From: Candidatus Dormiibacterota bacterium
GTDB taxonomy: Bacteria > Chloroflexota > Dormibacteria > CF-121
DNA length: 55,991 bases
Reading direction: 5' to 3'
Assembly: GCA_035602295.1 (NCBI GenBank)
Contig: DATNMN010000273.1
Location: 1 to 55,991, forward strand
Part shown: piece by piece, positions 11,247 to 43,518 of the stretch
How the letters are laid out: each line of letters begins with the position of its first letter
Numbering within the stretch: position 1 is the stretch's first letter
Translations under genes and position numbers: made by a program
Notes under the pieces: generated by a model
Databases searched by the model: none
Told to the model about the DNA's origin: nothing
What the model saw: only the letters and a program-made list of their open reading frames with translations

Positions 11247-11921
11247 ATGGATGGGCGCCAGCGTGCCGTCACGCTCGCCGTTGCATTGTTGCTGTTTGCC
11301 GCCTGCGGAGCACTTGGTGGTGTCGTGCTGGCGGGCGAAGCATGGGCATTGAACCCGGTGGCCGTGGCGCTGCCGTCCCTCGTACCAACCCCGCCTCCGT
11401 CGGACTCGGATTGGCCCCCGCCCACCCCGCGCCCCACGCCACGCCCGACGCCGACTCCCACTCCGCCACCAACCCCGCCGCCGACCGCGCCACCAACCCC
11501 GCCGCCGACAGCGACGCCTACGCCGCCCCCCACGCCCGCACCGACGCCAACGCCCACGCCGCCAACCCCCTCGCCGTCGGCATCACCAACGCCGGCGCCC
11601 ACCGAAACGCCGTCACCGACGCCGGCCCCTCAACCAACGCCAACCGTCAACGCCACGGCTCCGCCGCCAGCGCCACCTCCGGCGCCACCGCCGAATGCAG
11701 CCGCGCCGGACACCGGCACTCTACCTATTACAGTCGTGGCGCCGACCGGATCAGCTCAGGCAGTGGCGATCGCGCCGACCCCGCAGGAAGCGCGCATTGC
11801 CGCCGACACAGTTACCTCCGGCGATTCGCCGAACTTCTTCCTGCTGTTAATGGTCGCGGTCATGGCGATCCCGGCCCTGCTCACGCTGACCCTGCTCGCG
11901 ACCGTCTTGACGCGGCGCTGA
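11247..11921 (+). CDS. secreted Pro/Thr-rich protein with C-terminal TM anchor
   Basis: Signal peptide (..LAGEAWA), a long PTPxPTP low-complexity region, and a C-terminal hydrophobic helix ending in RR. Confidence 0.6.
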
Positions 11922-30134: not shown

Positions 30135-30482
30135 TTAGACGTCTAGTTCTTTGACGTCGAGGTCGCGCAGCTCGGGTGGCGCCTGCAGGCCGTTATCGAC
30201 CAGGATGCGCAACAGCCGGAGGACGTAACGCGCGCCGTTTAGGTTGACGCCGTGCTGGCGCGTCAGCGTCTGGATCGCCTGGAGCTTCCGGATGTCCCGT
30301 TGCGAGAAGCGCCGACGGTTCGTCGACGTGCGCTTGGGGACCACCAGGCCAAGATGCTCGTACATCATCAGGGTTCGGGGGTGCGTCTGGAGGATCTCGG
30401 ACGCCACGCTGATGGTGTAGATGGGCTTGTCGAGGGAGAGACTCGTATCCGGCGGTGCCCGGCGCGTTACTCCTTTAGCCAA
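30135..30482 (-). CDS. MerR-family regulator, HspR-like (paralog 1)
   Basis: LDKPIYTISVASEILQTHPRTLMMYEHLGLVVPKRTSTNRRRFSQRDIRKLQAIQTLTRQHGVNLNGARYVLRLL resembles HspR (YTISVAAE..HPQTLR.Y.RLGLV.P.RT..G.RRYS.RDI..L..VQ.L....G.NLAG). TTG start lies inside the 3' end of the upstream RR gene. Confidence 0.85.
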   Translation of the reverse strand: MAKGVTRRAPPDTSLSLDKPIYTISVASEILQTHPRTLMMYEHLGLVVPKRTSTNRRRFSQRDIRKLQAIQTLTRQHGVNLNGARYVLRLLRILVDNGLQAPPELRDLDVKELDV

Positions 30483-30895
30483 TCCTCGATACCTTCCGAG
30501 AGGCTGGTCGGCGTGGTGCGGGCCTTGATGAGGTACTCATGCGCCCCGAGGCGCAGCCCTCGCGCGACCAGATCCTCTTCATCGTAGTTAGAGAGGATGA
30601 TAACCGGAATATCGCGGGTCTTCTCCTGCGCGCGCAATTTCCTCAAGACTTCCAGCCCGTCCATTTTCGGCAGGCGGATATCGAGAAAGATGATGTCGGG
30701 AGCGAGGTCGCCGGCCTTCTTGAGGCCCTCTTCACCGTCGAGGGCGGTGTTGACCCGGTAGCCGTCGAGTTCCAGCTTCAATCGGTACATCTCGAGCACC
30801 GATGGATCGTCTTCCACGAGGAGGACATCGACCAGGTCTTCGTCGGCCTGGGTTGCGCGGTTCGCGCCGGCGCTTCGCCGCGTCTTACTTTCCAT
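30467..30895 (-). CDS. single-domain (REC-only) response regulator
   Basis: Contains VLLVEDDP, IIFLDIRLPKMDG, VIILSN and EYLIKA. No output domain. 16-nt overlap with the downstream MerR gene. Confidence 0.88.
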   Translation of the reverse strand: MESKTRRSAGANRATQADEDLVDVLLVEDDPSVLEMYRLKLELDGYRVNTALDGEEGLKKAGDLAPDIIFLDIRLPKMDGLEVLRKLRAQEKTRDIPVIILSNYDEEDLVARGLRLGAHEYLIKARTTPTSLSEGIEDWLKE

Positions 30896-31231: not shown

Positions 31232-31579
31232 TCAGACGTCCAGTTGCGAGACGTCGATATCGCGGAGCTCAACTGGCGACGGCAACTGGTGCTCATGCAA
31301 CAGCTTGAGGAGTTTGAGGATGTAGCGGACGCCGGCCAGGTTGACCGAGTGCTGCCGGGTCAGCTTTTGAATGGTTTGAAGCTTCATGACGTCGCGCTGC
31401 GAGAAGCGGCGCCGGTTGGTCGAGGTCCGCTTCGGCACGACCAGCCCAAGGTGCTCGTACATCATCAGCGTCCGCGGATGGGTCTCCAGAATCTCAGACG
31501 CCACGCTGATCGTGTAAATCGGTTTGTCGAGGGAGATGTTCGTGTCGCGTCGGGTGTCACGCTTGACGGCGATAGCCAT
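31232..31579 (-). CDS. MerR-family regulator, HspR-like (paralog 2)
   Basis: Start set to ATG 31579 (MAIAVKRDTRRD), preceded by a GGAGGG RBS. The 47-aa stretch LDKPIYTISVASEIL.THPRTLMMYEHLGLVVPKRTSTNRRRFSQRD differs from paralog 1 at one position. Confidence 0.85.
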   Translation of the reverse strand: MAIAVKRDTRRDTNISLDKPIYTISVASEILETHPRTLMMYEHLGLVVPKRTSTNRRRFSQRDVMKLQTIQKLTRQHSVNLAGVRYILKLLKLLHEHQLPSPVELRDIDVSQLDV

Positions 31580-31755
31580 GCGGCCCTCCAAAAATTGTTT
31601 ACCTGTTCCCGATTCCCGATCCACGACCGTGACGCCTACCGCCTGAGATCGCGTCGAGCGAAGCGATGGTCAGTATAGGCGGCAACGTGAGGGGGCTCAA
31701 GGGAGGATTCGTAAATACATGTGAACTCAAATAAACCCCCAGCCCTGGCATCAAA

Positions 31756-32908: not shown

Positions 32909-35170
32909 GTGGGGAGCCGTTATCCTCGTCTCTCTGTGGCTCCTCCTTTCAGGGATCTTCGGGTTTCTGAGCGCCTAAGCCTCGCCACGCGCCGACGGAG
33001 TCAGCGCAACGTCGAGCGCTGGCGCCGGCGTAGCCGTGCGGACTTTCGCCGGGTCCTGATCCTCGGCCTGCTGGTCGTCTTCGTGCTGCCCCTGCTCGGC
33101 ATCCCGGCGATCACGGCGCAGGCCGTGGGTACCCTGCCGGCCGTCAGCGGGCTGGCCTCCAACAAGATGGAGCAAGACACCCTGATCTACGACCGTCATG
33201 GCACATTGCTCGCGGACATCGGCAAAGCCGGTGACCATCGCATCGTCGTGCCGCTTAATTACATCTCGCCCTGGGTGGTGAAGGCGACCCTCGCCACCGA
33301 GGACCGCACGTTTTACTCGAACAGTGGCATCGACCTCGGCGGCATCGTTCGCGCCGCCATCGCGAACTATCAGCACCACGCGGTCAAGCAGGGTGGCAGC
33401 ACCATCAGTCAGCAGCTGGTGAAGCAGGTCTACATCGGTTCGAATGCCCCAGCGGACATCCAACGCAAGCTCAAAGAAGCCATCCTTGCCATCGAGCTGA
33501 ACCGTGAGTACAGCAAAAACCAGATCCTCGAGATGTACCTCAACACCATCTTCTATGGCAGTCAGACGTACGGCATCGAGGCAGCGGCCCGCAGCTACTT
33601 CCAGACCAACGCCCACGACCTTTCCCTGGCGCAGGCCGCCATGCTCGCCGGGCTGCCGCAGGCGCCGACGCAATACAACCCGGTGGTGAACCTGCAGTCC
33701 GCAAAGCAGCGGCAGGCGCAGGTGCTCGCCGCGATGGTGGGCGAGAAATACATCACCGCGGCGCAGGCCGAGGCGGCCTATGCCGTCAAGCTGCAGATCT
33801 CTCCACCAATCACCAAGTTCGAGGCGCCCTACTTCGTCGACTACGTCTTGAAGACGCTCGCCAAAGCCCCCTACAACATCACGTCTGACAATCGCAAGGG
33901 CTACCGGGTCTACACCAGCCTCGACCTGAACCTGCAACATCTCGCGGAGCAGACCGTCTATGACCAGGTGGCCCAGAAGGGCAACTTCTATAACTTCCAC
34001 GACGCCGCGCTGGTGAGCATGGACCCGAGGACCGGCGAGGTGCTAGCCATGGTTGGCGGCGTCGACTACAACCGTCCCGGCGGTCAGTTCAACTTCGCCT
34101 ACGACCAGCCGCGACCGCCGGGCTCGAGCTTCAAGATCTTCACCTACACCGCTGCCATCGAAAGCCGCAAGGTGAACATGGTCAGTCCGATCCTGGACGA
34201 GCCGCTGGTCTTTCCCATCGGCGGCGACCCGGCCGGTTTCGGCAAGTACATTCCACAAAACTACGATCGCCGCTTTCACGGCACCCTGCCGCTGAAGATG
34301 GCGATGGGCAACTCGATGAACATCCCGGCGCTGAAGACCGAGCTGCGCACCGGCATCCCGGCGGTAGTCGATATGGCGCACCGCATGGGCTTGACCTGCT
34401 TGGGTCCGCTCCCCTGCGTCGATCAGAGCCCGGACAACTACGGGATGAGCCTGACGCTGGGCGCGTACCCGGTGCGGCTCGCCGACATGGCGACGGCGGC
34501 CTCGACGTTGGCGACGCTCGGGGTCCGTCATCGCGAGGCGCCAATTCTCAACATCAAAGACGGCCTGGGTCGCGACGTCTTCACCTACGACGCGAAGAAG
34601 AATGAGTTCCGCGCCGTCGACGAGAACGTCGCTTTCATCATCGCCCAGATCATGTCGGACGACCGCAACCGCTGCCTGGAATTCGGCTGCCACGGCGACC
34701 TCACGCTGCCCGGCCGGACGGTCGCCGCGAAGACCGGCACCACCAACGACTTCAAGGACAACTGGACGATCGGCTTCACGCCGAGCCTGGCGACGGCGGT
34801 GTGGGTCGGCAACCCGGACAACAAGCCGCTCAGCCACAACTCGACGGGCATCGTCGGCGCTGCGCCCATCTGGCACAAGTTCATGATGCAAGCGCTTGCC
34901 GGGAAGCCCGACGAGTGGTACCCGGTGCCGGCCAGCGTTCACGCTTTGGGCGCGAATTACTTCTTGCCCGGTACTGAGAGCCTGCCGGCCACGCTCGCGC
35001 AGCCCTGGCCGCAGTGCAAGCTGCCGGCGAACTACAACCCCTACACCCTGACCTATTCGCAAATCACGGTCAACGGTGTCTACTGCATCATCAACCCGCC
35101 GCCACCACCACCCGCGCCGCCACCCACGCCGTCGCCCTCACCGACTCCCAACAACCAGGGAAACAACTAA
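32909..35170 (+). CDS. class A penicillin-binding protein (GT51 transglycosylase + transpeptidase)
   Basis: GT51 motifs EDRTFYSNSGID, GGSTISQQLVK and RKLKEAILAIELN. Transpeptidase motifs SSFK, a SxN region and KTGTT. Pro-rich tail. Start uncertain. Confidence 0.9.
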   Translation: MGSRYPRLSVAPPFRDLRVSERLSLATRRRSQRNVERWRRRSRADFRRVLILGLLVVFVLPLLGIPAITAQAVGTLPAVSGLASNKMEQDTLIYDRHGTLLADIGKAGDHRIVVPLNYISPWVVKATLATEDRTFYSNSGIDLGGIVRAAIANYQHHAVKQGGSTISQQLVKQVYIGSNAPADIQRKLKEAILAIELNREYSKNQILEMYLNTIFYGSQTYGIEAAARSYFQTNAHDLSLAQAAMLAGLPQAPTQYNPVVNLQSAKQRQAQVLAAMVGEKYITAAQAEAAYAVKLQISPPITKFEAPYFVDYVLKTLAKAPYNITSDNRKGYRVYTSLDLNLQHLAEQTVYDQVAQKGNFYNFHDAALVSMDPRTGEVLAMVGGVDYNRPGGQFNFAYDQPRPPGSSFKIFTYTAAIESRKVNMVSPILDEPLVFPIGGDPAGFGKYIPQNYDRRFHGTLPLKMAMGNSMNIPALKTELRTGIPAVVDMAHRMGLTCLGPLPCVDQSPDNYGMSLTLGAYPVRLADMATAASTLATLGVRHREAPILNIKDGLGRDVFTYDAKKNEFRAVDENVAFIIAQIMSDDRNRCLEFGCHGDLTLPGRTVAAKTGTTNDFKDNWTIGFTPSLATAVWVGNPDNKPLSHNSTGIVGAAPIWHKFMMQALAGKPDEWYPVPASVHALGANYFLPGTESLPATLAQPWPQCKLPANYNPYTLTYSQITVNGVYCIINPPPPPPAPPPTPSPSPTPNNQGNN

Positions 35171-35794: not shown

Positions 35795-35993
35795 ACAAAA
35801 CGCGCGCCTCCACGGCAGCACGGTGCTTCCGGGGGGCCGCGACGCCATCGTATCACTTGCCTTTGGGCCCGCTGCACGTTCGGTTGCGTACGTCGCCAAT
35901 TCAGGAAATTGGGTGAACTTGTTTTATACTAACCACCGATGGGAAGGGGGGAAAGATGACAGGCATGATGTCTGCTTTGCGACCTGCCGTCCT

Positions 35994-36101
35994 AATGAGC
36001 CCGCTCCGGCGTGGAAAAGCCGGCGGTTCAATGAGCCCGCTCCGGCCTGGAAAAGCGGGCGGTTCAATGAGCCCGCTCCGGCGTGGAAAAGCGGGCGGTT
36101 C
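35994..36101 (+). repeat. 3 x 36-bp perfect-period tandem repeat, each unit a hairpin; abuts the RBS of the REC gene
   Basis: Units are at 35994-36029, 36030-36065 and 36066-36101 and read AATGAGCCCGCTCCGGC(G/C)TGGAAAAGC(C/G)GGCGGTTC. Stem is GCCCGCT/AGCGGGC around loop CCGGYNTGGAAA. The array is followed directly by AAGGAGGGG-ac-ATG (36113). Confidence 0.9.
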
Positions 36102-36112
36102 AAGGAGGGGAC

Positions 36113-36502
36113 ATGAGTGAAGTCGTCGACGAGGACGTAAACGTCCTATTCATCGAAGATGATCCGGCGGTGGCTGAGATGTACAAGCTCAAGCTGGAGC
36201 TGGATGGCTACCGCGTCACCGTCGCGAAGTCCGGCGAGGAGGGCCTCGACCACGCCAAGAACCAGGTGCCGGACATCGTGTTCCTCGACATTCGGCTCCC
36301 GAAGATGGACGGCTTCGCCGTTCTCGAGAACCTTCGTTCCGATAGCGTTACCAAGAACATCCCGGTCATCATCCTGTCCAACTACGGCGAGAAGGAATTA
36401 GTCGATCGCGGACTGAAGCTCGGCGCCCTCGACTACCTGATCAAGTCCGAGACCACACCCGCCAGCCTGAGCCGCGGCGTCCAGGATTGGGTCAAGGAAT
36501 AG
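36113..36502 (+). CDS. single-domain (REC-only) response regulator (paralog of 30467..30895)
   Basis: Contains VLFIEDDP, IVFLDIRLPKMDG, VIILSN and DYLIKS. Start ATG 36113 with an AAGGAGG RBS. Track ORF starts at 36083. Confidence 0.88.
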   Translation: MSEVVDEDVNVLFIEDDPAVAEMYKLKLELDGYRVTVAKSGEEGLDHAKNQVPDIVFLDIRLPKMDGFAVLENLRSDSVTKNIPVIILSNYGEKELVDRGLKLGALDYLIKSETTPASLSRGVQDWVKE

Positions 36503-40223: not shown

Positions 40224-40526
40224 GTGACAATGCCGCATAAGTCCAGCGAAGTCTCCGATATGTTCGACATCGAGCCGCGAACACTCTTCGTCTACGAGAG
40301 TGAGAACCTGATCGCGCCTGAACGAACGCCGACCCAGCGTCGCCGCTACTCGCGCCGGGACATCGAGCGGATCCGGCTGATTCGCGAGCTCACCACGGTG
40401 CACGGCATCAATCTCGCCGGGGTCAAGGTGATCTTCTCCCTGATGGAGGCGGCCGTCCAGAGCCGGCTCCAGATCCCGGAGACGGAGTTTCCGGAGCTCG
40501 CCGGCGCCCGCCATCTCTGGGCCTGA
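40224..40526 (+). CDS. MerR-family regulator, HspR-like (paralog 4, divergent)
   Basis: Contains DIEPRTLFVYESENLIAPERTPTQRRRYSRRDIERIRLIRELTTVHGINLAGVKVIFSL. TATAAT-containing AT-rich region upstream (about 40170-40195). Confidence 0.75.
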   Translation: MTMPHKSSEVSDMFDIEPRTLFVYESENLIAPERTPTQRRRYSRRDIERIRLIRELTTVHGINLAGVKVIFSLMEAAVQSRLQIPETEFPELAGARHLWA

Positions 40527-42873: not shown

Positions 42874-43016
42874 GGCCAGCTTCTAACTCTACGCGGGGTT
42901 CCCGGGGCCAGTTCTCAGCTTCCGGCCAAGGTTGCGCCCCAGACCAATAGGTGATATCGTGGCTATAAAATTACTGCCATGCGGGGATGGTCGGGTCCGT
43001 CTTTAGGGGTAGGGAC

Positions 43017-43364
43017 ATGGGAAAGCGGAAGCGAATGTCAGCAATCGCCCCCGGGCGGGCGGTTTTCACACCCAGTATCGCGAGCGAGATCCTGAATCTC
43101 CATCCGCGCACCTTGATGATCTACGAGAGCGAGAGCCTCATCAAGCCGCAGCGGACGGCGACCAACCGCCGCCGCTACTCTGAGGACGATATCCGGAGAG
43201 TCCGGGTGATCCAGTTCCTGACCCGACAGAAGGGCGTGAACCTGGCGGGGGTCAAATACGTCCTCCGCTTGCTGCAGACGCTGGCCGACCAAGGCCTCGA
43301 TCTCAACCAGGTCCCCGAGCTCGACTCGCTGCAGGAAGTCTCCGGAGACGGCCTGATCGCCTGA
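43017..43364 (+). CDS. MerR-family regulator, HspR-like (paralog 5)
   Basis: Contains FTPSIASEILNLHPRTLMIYESESLIKPQRTATNRRRYSEDDIRRVRVIQFLTRQKGVNLAGVKYVLRLL. ATG 43017. Divergent from otsA. Confidence 0.85.
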   Translation: MGKRKRMSAIAPGRAVFTPSIASEILNLHPRTLMIYESESLIKPQRTATNRRRYSEDDIRRVRVIQFLTRQKGVNLAGVKYVLRLLQTLADQGLDLNQVPELDSLQEVSGDGLIA

Positions 43365-43369
43365 GCATA

Positions 43370-43395
43370 GCCGCCCCCGGTGTGGAAAGGGCGGC
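43370..43395 (+). repeat. solitary copy of the CCGGYGTGGAAA-loop hairpin element
   Basis: GCCGCCC-CCGGTGTGGAAA-GGGCGGC, 6 nt after the MerR paralog-5 stop. It has the same 7-bp stem / 12-nt loop architecture as the 36-bp repeats at 35994-36101, with a different but still complementary stem. Confidence 0.8.
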
Positions 43396-43518
43396 GCGAA
43401 CGTGCTGAACTTGCGCGAAAGTGCTTGACAGCCATTGCCGACTATGTAACAGTGTGCATATCAATTTTCATGCGTCGGTGAATTGAGGGTAATCGGGGTT
43501 AGTGAAGGGAGCGATTGA

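Follow-up and report, generated by a model that had tools for sequence, protein, structure and literature searches.

A clade-restricted family of palindromic mini-repeats probably accounts for the hairpin array in the leader of a receiver/HspR-like operon of Candidatus Dormiibacterota

Introduction

Hairpin-forming repeats placed directly in front of a regulatory operon raise the question of whether they serve that operon or are genomic repeats that reside there. In contig DATNMN010000273.1 (assembly GCA_035602295.1) of a Candidatus Dormiibacterota bacterium, which was analysed over its positions 1 to 55,991 (this whole stretch is called the window below), an array of three 36-nt palindromic units precedes the gene of a receiver-only response regulator (REC), followed by the gene of a MerR family regulator. 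The latter is called HspR-like here, as its NCBIfam HspR score of 92.1 bits is under the curated cut-off of 105. A first-pass annotation, made from the letters alone, proposed that the array is a structured leader or a protein-binding platform controlling this operon, and speculated about a thermosensor.

The array is probably one locus of a clade-restricted palindromic mini-repeat family, similar to REP, MIRU and RPE elements and behaving as a variable-number tandem repeat (VNTR), which is likely to lie inside the 5' untranslated region of the operon. The hairpin family is gained, lost, flipped and multiplied between close relatives and looks like a genomic repeat rather than a dedicated switch. 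This reading is carried by the repetition and dispersal of the element, its presence/absence and copy-number polymorphism, an inversion, an in-frame occurrence in coding sequence and the covariation of its stems, which are described below.

The array and its units

The three units stand head-to-tail and are contiguous, as the first-pass annotation had described (Table 1). Compared with AATGAGCCCGCTCCGGCGTGGAAAAGCGGGCGGTTC, they carry one, one and zero mismatches, and 100 shufflings of the window yielded no match (0/100). Tandem Repeats Finder reported the array as the top-scoring repeat of the window (period 36, 3.2 copies, score 207) and extended it to 36107, because AAGGAG resembles AATGAG. 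The array was originally thought to end 1 nt before the ribosome-binding site; in fact it abuts AAGGAGGGG directly (36101/36102), which is followed by 'ac' and by the ATG of REC at 36113.

Each unit has arms GCCCGCT/AGCGGGC of 7 bp around a 12-nt loop CCGG(C)(G/C)TGGAAA. This agrees with the hairpin drawn earlier, including the single stem mismatch of unit 1 (AGCCGGC); unit 2 carries one loop substitution. The fold energy of a single unit is -14 to -15 kcal/mol (z of -1.3 to -1.4, plus strand), and the 191-nt leader folds with z = -1.8, so that the hairpins are thermodynamically unexceptional for such G+C-rich sequence. The significance of the array comes, therefore, from repetition and conservation and not from folding energy.

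Copy number and presence/absence at the REC leader

Exact matches to the REC protein were obtained on contigs of several soil metagenome projects and of one metagenome-assembled genome, and all contigs with the identical REC share the neighbourhood PBP1, two YtxH genes, REC, MerR and FtsH. With the identical protein of 129 amino acids, the leader was found without any unit in eight places (...CGGCGCCTAAGGAGGGGACATG), with the same three units as in the window on two contigs (L003/L011), with four units on one contig (L007) and with a run of N inside the array on another (L012). Thus, the array is an insertion between CCTA and AGGAGG that varies in length. The first-pass annotation had named a repeat number varying freely among close relatives as an observation that would speak against its proposal, and zero, three and four units next to an identical REC are such a case. 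Copy number also differs between closest pairs when the REC coding sequences are arranged in a neighbour-joining tree (3 vs 4, 1 vs 2, 2 vs 3 and 1 vs 3 units), and the zero-copy alleles with the identical REC protein form a separate branch at the DNA level.

On the contigs found by sequence pattern (see below), REC-leader arrays have from one to five or more units, with periods of 33, 36, 37, 38, 39 and 40 nt. The linker of 0-8 nt is conserved, being uniform within an array and different between clades, and the distance from the array to the ribosome-binding site ranges from 4 to 14 nt. The varied periods and clade-specific linkers are consistent with local amplification rather than with one fixed architecture. 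In the leaders of L014-L070, the periods are mostly multiples of three (36, 39, 33), and 34, 37, 38 and 40 nt occur as well.

Relatives L071-L081 were reached via the protein and were thus unselected for carrying the repeat. Among these protein-found relatives, no unit was present in the leaders of L080 (97% REC identity), L081 (95%), L071-73 (91%), L074 (87%), L075-77 (86%) and L078-79 (79%), nor in the leaders belonging to the read-through gene calls P0002, P0004 and P0008, while P0001 had one unit with a loop variant. The look-ups with P0003, P0006 and P0007 gave one contig each, that of P0007 without DNA, and added little. The empty leaders of relatives indicate that the family occurs only within a narrow clade and that the operon can do without it.

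Sub-families, loop conservation and a second locus in the window

The first-pass annotation had suggested a family-wide search for the stem and loop, and this proved productive; a lack of other copies, which it had named as a further observation that would speak against its proposal, is not what was found. The loop 12-mer with flanking complementarity was searched in 533 kb of sequence, which revealed hairpins with the same loop, CCGG(C/T)GTGGAAA, on other, compensated stems. The basic element of ~30-34 nt consists of AAT-N-A, GCCCGCT, the loop CCGGCGTGGAAA, AGCGGGC and GG. One sub-family, alt1 (ATA-GCCGCCC...GGGCGGC-G), occurs in the window at 43367-43398 (stem-loop 43370-43395), in L018 and in L050, and the orthologous copy of L029 has decayed (stem GCGGTCC, three loop substitutions). 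Another (ATAA-GCGGCC...GGCCGC) occurs in L022, L027, L036 and L059. When 23 representative copies were aligned, 95.6% of the cells paired, compared with 31-65% when the 3' partner was slid, and both sides changed in three of the seven stem pairs.

A covariance model built from this alignment (7-bp stem, loop CCGGYGTGGAAA) and run with filters off gave four convincing matches in the window and no more, namely the three units of the array and one match at 43364-43401; exact occurrences of the loop 12-mer there number three against 0.02 expected. The model found no match in 126 kb of L071-L079, in which REC identity is 91% or lower, and no unit at the paralogous REC-MerR pair of the window (30895-30138, minus strand).

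The intergenic alignment of the alt1 site shows the 44-nt segment 43367-43410 in one orientation in the window and in the opposite one in L018, L029 and L050, between homologous flanks running from the MerR stop to TTGCG..CTTGACAGCC..CTATGTAACAGT. In L050 the site carries two tandem copies, one of them decayed. The inversion implies that orientation is unconstrained at this site and favours DNA-level events over a strand-specific RNA function. Arms that vary around a fixed centre are the opposite of a dimeric double-stranded DNA operator, and the fixed loop on covarying stems suggests recognition of an extruded or single-stranded hairpin. Taken together, the invariant loop, the covarying stems and the tolerance of both orientations suggest that a trans-acting protein may recognise the element.

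Dispersal to other gene junctions

Two large collections were searched with an exact core pattern of 22 bases, GCTCCGGCNTGGAAAAGCNGGCGG. It matched 6 related genome contigs and 51 metagenome contigs, with one chance match in a Pygmaiobacter coding sequence. Viral contigs gave 0 matches. The host records are labelled 'Chloroflexi/Chloroflexota bacterium' or 'Candidatus Dormiibacterota' and represent uncultured soil organisms. One contig, L015, is labelled Candidatus Acidoferrum, yet bears a Dormibacterota-type locus, which is probably a binning error.

About two-thirds of the core-pattern matches are REC leaders, and the rest lie at other sites. At least five contexts unrelated to one another were obtained with the core pattern, and at least eight distinct ones in all. 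One to three units separate the convergent genes of a dCMP deaminase and a PfkB kinase. Between the stop codon of an S-adenosylmethionine-dependent methyltransferase gene and the start of mfd (TRCF), one to three or more units are found in antisense to both genes. At the junction of ddl and ftsQ (L030 1891-1928, minus strand, and L026), ddl ends on the TGA within the element's AATGAG, and ftsQ starts with an ATG 3 nt past the element. In the gene order apt, PfkB kinase, ahcY, one or two units with a period of 33 nt occur between the first two genes. The genes flanking the copies have no common functional theme.

In the last of these contexts the element lies 3' of the kinase ATG and is read in frame. 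Kinase N-termini of the empty form, MADSIRP-ILVVGS, are present in at least 90 clusters, those with one unit (MNQPAPAWKSGRDVRP-) in a few and those with two units of period 33 (METYQPAPAWKSGRNEPAPAWKSGRDVRP-) in one cluster; DNA was read for an empty allele (L082) and for filled alleles (L083, L054, L066 and L070). Presence/absence polymorphism is thus found at a second locus, the kinase start, and coding sequence can accommodate the element if the length of the element is a multiple of three. In L022, L027 and L059, a sub-family copy is located at the 3' end of a PfkB kinase gene and is read through, which changes the C-terminus.

Architecture of the leader

The array is probably located in the 5' untranslated region of the REC operon, because a conserved -10-like TATACT lies upstream, the predicted transcription start being near 35937. 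The TATACT is followed by a G-rich run, then by a TGACA-N7-TGTC palindrome and then by the array. The -10-like element reads TATAGT in L075-77, and L078/79 have a different, TTGACA-based promoter layout. A sigma-70 promoter and terminator scan of the region reported no promoter-like site, and no terminator at the array; the hairpins are followed by no T-tract, in agreement with the first-pass annotation, which had excluded terminators on this ground.

The palindrome TGACAGGCATGATGTCT, rather than the array, may be the operator of the HspR-like repressor. Its half-sites vary jointly in relatives, as GATAG-N5-CTATC (L071), GATAGC-N3-GCTATC (L075) and TTGACAtacacgaTGTCA (L078). The HspR operator HAIR is an inverted repeat, CTTGAGT-N7-ACTCAAG, the arms of which are the conserved part; the palindrome has the same 7-N7-7 geometry, and in L078/79 it overlaps the TTGACA -35 box.

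A small putative open reading frame (ORF) of 54 codons reads through the three units. Across 32 distinct leaders, an ORF runs from the conserved (A/G)TGACAG to a stop codon overlapping the REC ATG in 28, a count that includes related alleles and a stop codon which two of the three frames reach by default; it is in frame with REC in only three of them. The units are read in different frames by lineage, giving SPLRRGKAGGS, EPAPAWKSGRF or ARSGVEKRAV. Shorter upstream ORFs of 12-18 codons are present in the zero-copy leaders L001, L071, L074 and L081 and absent in L080 and L075. Translational coupling of the upstream ORF with REC is possible.

The ribosome-binding site lies outside the hairpins. 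In partition-function folds of leaders with 0-4 units, its unpaired probability was 0.28-0.98 without a trend over copy number, and no consistent masking of the site was predicted, contrary to the CTCC-GGAG pairing proposed in the first-pass annotation.

Table 1. Features of the repeat array, the REC operon and the second repeat locus in the window
Feature	Position	Strand	Remarks
-10-like TATACT	35925-35930	+	Present in most of the examined relatives, also in distant ones
Small upstream ORF, 54 codons	35956-36120	+	Reads through three units; stops at TGA of ATGAGTGA, overlapping the REC start; translation putative
Palindrome TGACA-N7-TGTC(T)	35957-35973	+	Candidate operator of the HspR-like repressor
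Repeat unit 1	35994-36029	+	Stem 35999-36005/36018-36024 with C-C mismatch; loop CCGGCGTGGAAA at 36006-36017; tail GGTTC; covariance model 55.5 bits
Repeat unit 2	36030-36065	+	Perfect 7-bp stem; loop CCGGCCTGGAAA
Repeat unit 3 (consensus copy)	36066-36101	+	Perfect stem; loop CCGGCGTGGAAA; abuts ribosome-binding site; covariance model 60.2 bits
REC ribosome-binding site AAGGAGGGG	36102-36110	+	Unchanged in zero-copy alleles
Receiver-only response regulator (REC), 129 amino acids	36113-36502	+	
HspR-like MerR family regulator, 114 amino acids	36506-36850	+	Four bases 3' of REC; best NCBIfam match HspR
Second HspR-like MerR gene	42987-43364	+	NCBIfam 82.2 bits against a cut-off of 105; directly upstream of the alt1 hairpin
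Second family member, alt1	43367-43410	+	ATA-GCCGCCC-CCGGTGTGGAAA-GGGCGGC-GCGAACGTGCTGAAC; starts 2 nt past the stop of the second HspR-like MerR gene

A dispersed repeat as the likely origin of the array

What these observations leave of the first-pass proposal is its description: the hairpins are genuine, the loop is conserved and the location is probably a 5' untranslated region, whereas dedicated control of REC and MerR is not supported in view of the variation in copy number, the empty leaders and the dispersal to other genes. If the array belongs to a repeat family, its history might be as follows. The element would land at several gene boundaries, and a resident copy would multiply or contract head-to-tail via slippage or unequal exchange, giving rise to a VNTR. 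One copy would have entered the leader of the REC/HspR-like operon, between the promoter-proximal palindrome and the ribosome-binding site, and would have grown to three units in the lineage of the window. These units may be transcribed as three stable 5' untranslated hairpins, read through by the small upstream ORF, and they would be dispensable for the operon, any effect on expression being a side effect that scales with copy number. A trans-acting protein, such as a REP-associated HUH-type transposase-like enzyme, might recognise the hairpin as extruded or single-stranded nucleic acid.

Several points weigh against a repeat family of this kind. A mobilising gene of the RAYT type was not found among the ten small ORFs of the window that were scanned against Pfam, no genome-wide search having been made. 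The ~8 contexts are far below the hundreds of copies typical of REPs. When empty alleles were compared with filled ones, both at the REC leader and at the kinase start, there was no clear target-site duplication, only ambiguous short duplication-like matches: CCTAA...TAA (L035), CTAA...CTAA (L025) and AAGGAG on both sides (L064). All multi-copy sites are direct tandem arrays and not REPIN inverted doublets; the only both-strand pair is on L067, a seemingly chimeric contig with the leader on both strands and many small differences, which is probably chimeric or of low quality. The conservation of the 12-nt loop exceeds what a purely selfish repeat would need, sense orientation predominates (~7 of 9 context/orientation cases), and the element is frequently within a few nt of stop or start codons, all of which is compatible with an RNA-level function. 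Finally, copies look nearly identical across species (core divergence 0.014, compared with 0.29 at third codon positions of REC), but the exact 22-base pattern by which most loci were collected inflates this likeness, which was for that reason not used as evidence of selection.

Alternative explanations

The main rival explanation regards the units as a cis-regulatory RNA platform, in which CCGGYGUGGAAA, read by an RNA-binding protein acting in trans or by RNA through a loop-loop or antisense contact, would tune translation initiation or mRNA stability, copy number acting as the dose at the REC/HspR-like operon. It was kept because of the invariant loop, the sense predominance and the proximity to start and stop codons, but we consider it rather unlikely. 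A loop that stays invariant while stems covary across three sub-families is what it would expect, as is an element in a probable 5' untranslated region abutting the ribosome-binding site, or lying in sense within 0-16 nt of stop or start codons at ddl-ftsQ, at apt-PfkB and downstream of the second MerR gene. The element is, however, antisense at methyltransferase-mfd, its orientation at the second MerR site is flipped between the window and three other genomes, and inside the kinase gene it is translated in frame. Moreover, the same leader does without it in many close and all distant relatives, as does the paralogous REC-MerR pair, the element's spacing from the ribosome-binding site is variable (4 to 14 nt), the predicted accessibility of this site follows no copy-number trend, and the flanking genes lack a functional theme. 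Both loci of the window adjoin HspR-like genes, but with five MerR_1 genes among its ~57 ORFs such adjacency weighs little. The GGA in the loop is reminiscent of CsrA-type hairpin sites, a comparison that is weakened by the antisense, inverted and in-frame copies. A further reading, in which the hairpin is the recognition site of a dedicated protein (a domesticated HUH/RAYT-like enzyme or an RNA-binding protein) that reads CCGGYGUGGAAA on any G+C-rich 7-bp stem, would make the dispersed copies a lineage-specific post-transcriptional or attenuation network at stop/start junctions and at the REC/HspR-like leader, with the strength at each gene set by the fast-evolving copy number; it appears a little more doubtful still.

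The remaining alternatives concern peptide, operator and artefact. The array could be a coding minisatellite within the 54-codon leader peptide (35956-36120), with REC translated by termination-reinitiation coupling, as proposed for MIRUs, and with repeats persisting by keeping the ORF open. The 28 of 32 leaders with an ORF reaching the REC ATG, only three of them in frame with REC, would fit this, and so would the G-rich run resembling a ribosome-binding site ahead of the ORF, the array periods that are mostly multiples of 3, and the zero-copy leaders L071, L074 and L081, in which a 12-codon upstream ORF ends with ATGA or GTGA. Yet frames differ by lineage and no peptide is conserved, two of three frames would stop in ATGAGTGA anyway and the leaders counted are related alleles, the conserved 'start' belongs to the TGACA-N7-TGTC palindrome, which covaries like an operator or a hairpin, periods of 34, 37, 38 and 40 nt occur, and L080 and L075 do not fit; this explanation is accordingly improbable. 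Tandem double-stranded DNA operators for the HspR-like MerR protein, its REC partner or another transcription factor are very improbable. An inverted repeat near the promoter of an autoregulation-prone regulator operon, with a second copy adjoining another HspR-like gene, would be in place there, but the arms vary by sub-family around a fixed 12-nt centre, the reverse of a dimeric operator, and unrelated housekeeping genes also have copies, within operons and in coding sequence. Zero-copy alleles retain the other parts of the promoter region, a better operator candidate is present upstream at 35957-35973, and HAIR itself was rejected, as the units bear no likeness to it and the arms GCCCGCT/AGCGGGC change between sub-families. 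As to a repeat collapsed or inflated during assembly, the run of N in L012 indicates that assemblers struggle at this place, but independent projects show three (L003/L011), four (L007) and, altogether, one to five units with lineage-specific linkers and point differences, which makes an artefact next to inconceivable.

Other candidates were rejected as well. With Rfam 15, at permissive and gathering thresholds, the best overlap with the array was anti-hemB at 19.3 bits, compared with 49.5 needed, and only two tRNAs passed the gathering threshold over the whole window. An RNA thermometer (ROSE/fourU), and with it the thermosensor of the first-pass annotation, is not consistent with a ribosome-binding site outside the hairpins, accessibility without a trend and hairpins of ~-15 kcal/mol, which are too stable. 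Canonical T-tailed hairpins exist elsewhere in the genome, and the units have no T-tract of an intrinsic terminator. They are contiguous or separated by a conserved linker of 0-8 nt, so the absence of CRISPR spacers noted in the first-pass annotation holds. The spacing does not fit a sigma-54 promoter (GG-N10-GC), and a likeness to the tRNA T-arm across unit junctions (GGTTCAA) only reflects another way in which these arms can pair between units. With 2 loci in 56 kb and none in the 126 kb from sister lineages, the element is much too sparse for a DNA uptake sequence. A phage origin is unsupported, as viral contigs gave no match, and a conserved leader peptide was dismissed because different lineages read the repeat in three different frames.

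Other features of the window and its relatives

The window is unusually rich in MerR_1 paralogues, with five in 56 kb (besides those next to the two REC genes, at 31235-31624 on the minus strand and at 40224-40526 and 42987-43364 on the plus strand), and related loci have a similar MerR_1 clustering, adjoining trehalose-phosphate synthase and phosphatase genes. The second REC-MerR pair is on the minus strand (REC 30470-30895, MerR 30138-30482). Upstream of it lies a perfect 12/12 sigma-70 consensus promoter, TTGACA-17-TATAAT (31099-31071, minus strand), and ~30 nt past this promoter a 9-bp G+C-rich hairpin with a T-rich tail (31042-31011, minus strand); the stretch 31099-31011 might specify a short RNA or act as an attenuator.

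Two stretches of proline-rich coding sequence, at 11421-11693 and 35094-35131, consist of tandem repeats (periods 6-30 nt), the latter forming the Pro/Thr/Ser-rich C-terminal tail of the PBP1-type transglycosylase/transpeptidase. Among the relatives, the gene calls P0001, P0002, P0004, P0008 and P0071 were extended through the leader or the repeats, yielding 'REC' proteins of 138-213 amino acids with spurious N-termini.

Implications

The covariance model (7-bp stem, loop CCGGYGTGGAAA) gives the repeat family a concrete form that can be searched for, in a phylum known from metagenomes alone. The family also serves as a warning for annotation, as the units yield spurious N-terminal extensions and small ORFs, and REC proteins of 195-213 amino acids and N-terminal variants of the kinase are already public. 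Assemblers break at these arrays, and the arrays offer a natural VNTR marker for strain resolution in these soil bacteria. If it is true that a protein reads the invariant loop, the family would be a compact system for studying the recognition and co-option of hairpin repeats. The evidence for a new regulatory mechanism of the REC/HspR-like operon is weak.

Comparison with known repeat systems

By the tests made, the hairpin family is not a member of the MIRU, REP or RPE families, and its resemblance to each of them is partial. It shares a 36-nt period and a palindromic repeat with CRISPR arrays, but has no spacers, and no cas gene was noticed among the ORFs of the window that were examined. 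RPEs were reportedly described by Ogata et al. in 2000 as lying in frame inside protein genes, adding residues without destroying the protein. The insertions of 11 residues that are present or absent in the PfkB kinase N-terminus are similar in-frame palindromic insertions; RPEs, however, measure ~100-150 bp and show no tandem amplification, whereas the copies described here are mostly intergenic.

REP elements are imperfect palindromes of ~20-40 nt, located at gene ends or in operons, with lineage-specific sub-groups and tandem clusters, and recognition of their hairpin by a protein has been proposed; in strain SBW25, up to five REPINs stand in tandem (PMC3337134, PMC3116915). The present family resembles the REP/BIME/REPIN elements of Enterobacteria, Pseudomonas and Stenotrophomonas in its short palindrome with conserved flanks (here 5' AAT-N-A or ATA and 3' GG), its lineage specificity, its several sub-groups and its tandem clusters. 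The differences are that REPs number hundreds per genome, compared with ~8 contexts here and 2 loci in the 56-kb window (no whole genome was scanned), one of the contexts being in coding sequence; that REPs replicate as inverted doublets (REPINs), while all repeats here are direct; and that conservation peaks in the 12-nt loop of this element but lies outside the loop, which is short, in REPs.

The founding MIRU locus lies between the two-component genes senX3 and regX3 and consists of 77- and 53-bp units, the number of which differs between H37Rv and CDC1551 (PMC4213456). MIRU units are longer (46-101 bp vs 33-40 nt here), and the strong hairpin, the invariant 12-nt loop and the compensated-stem sub-families distinguish the present element, as does its occurrence in both orientations and in frame in coding sequence. 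According to Supply et al. (1997), small ORFs are said to run through MIRU units and to overlap the flanking stop and start codons. A possibly comparable trait is the ORF ending in ATGAGTGA or ATGA in 28 of 32 leaders, where two of three frames would do so by default and the peptide is not conserved. The host phylum is unrelated and kinship in sequence is not expected, the likeness being one of behaviour and not of membership: both form direct tandem arrays of a short unit at a limited number of intergenic sites, often inside operons, and in both the copy number varies between strains, here from zero to three and four units in front of an identical REC.

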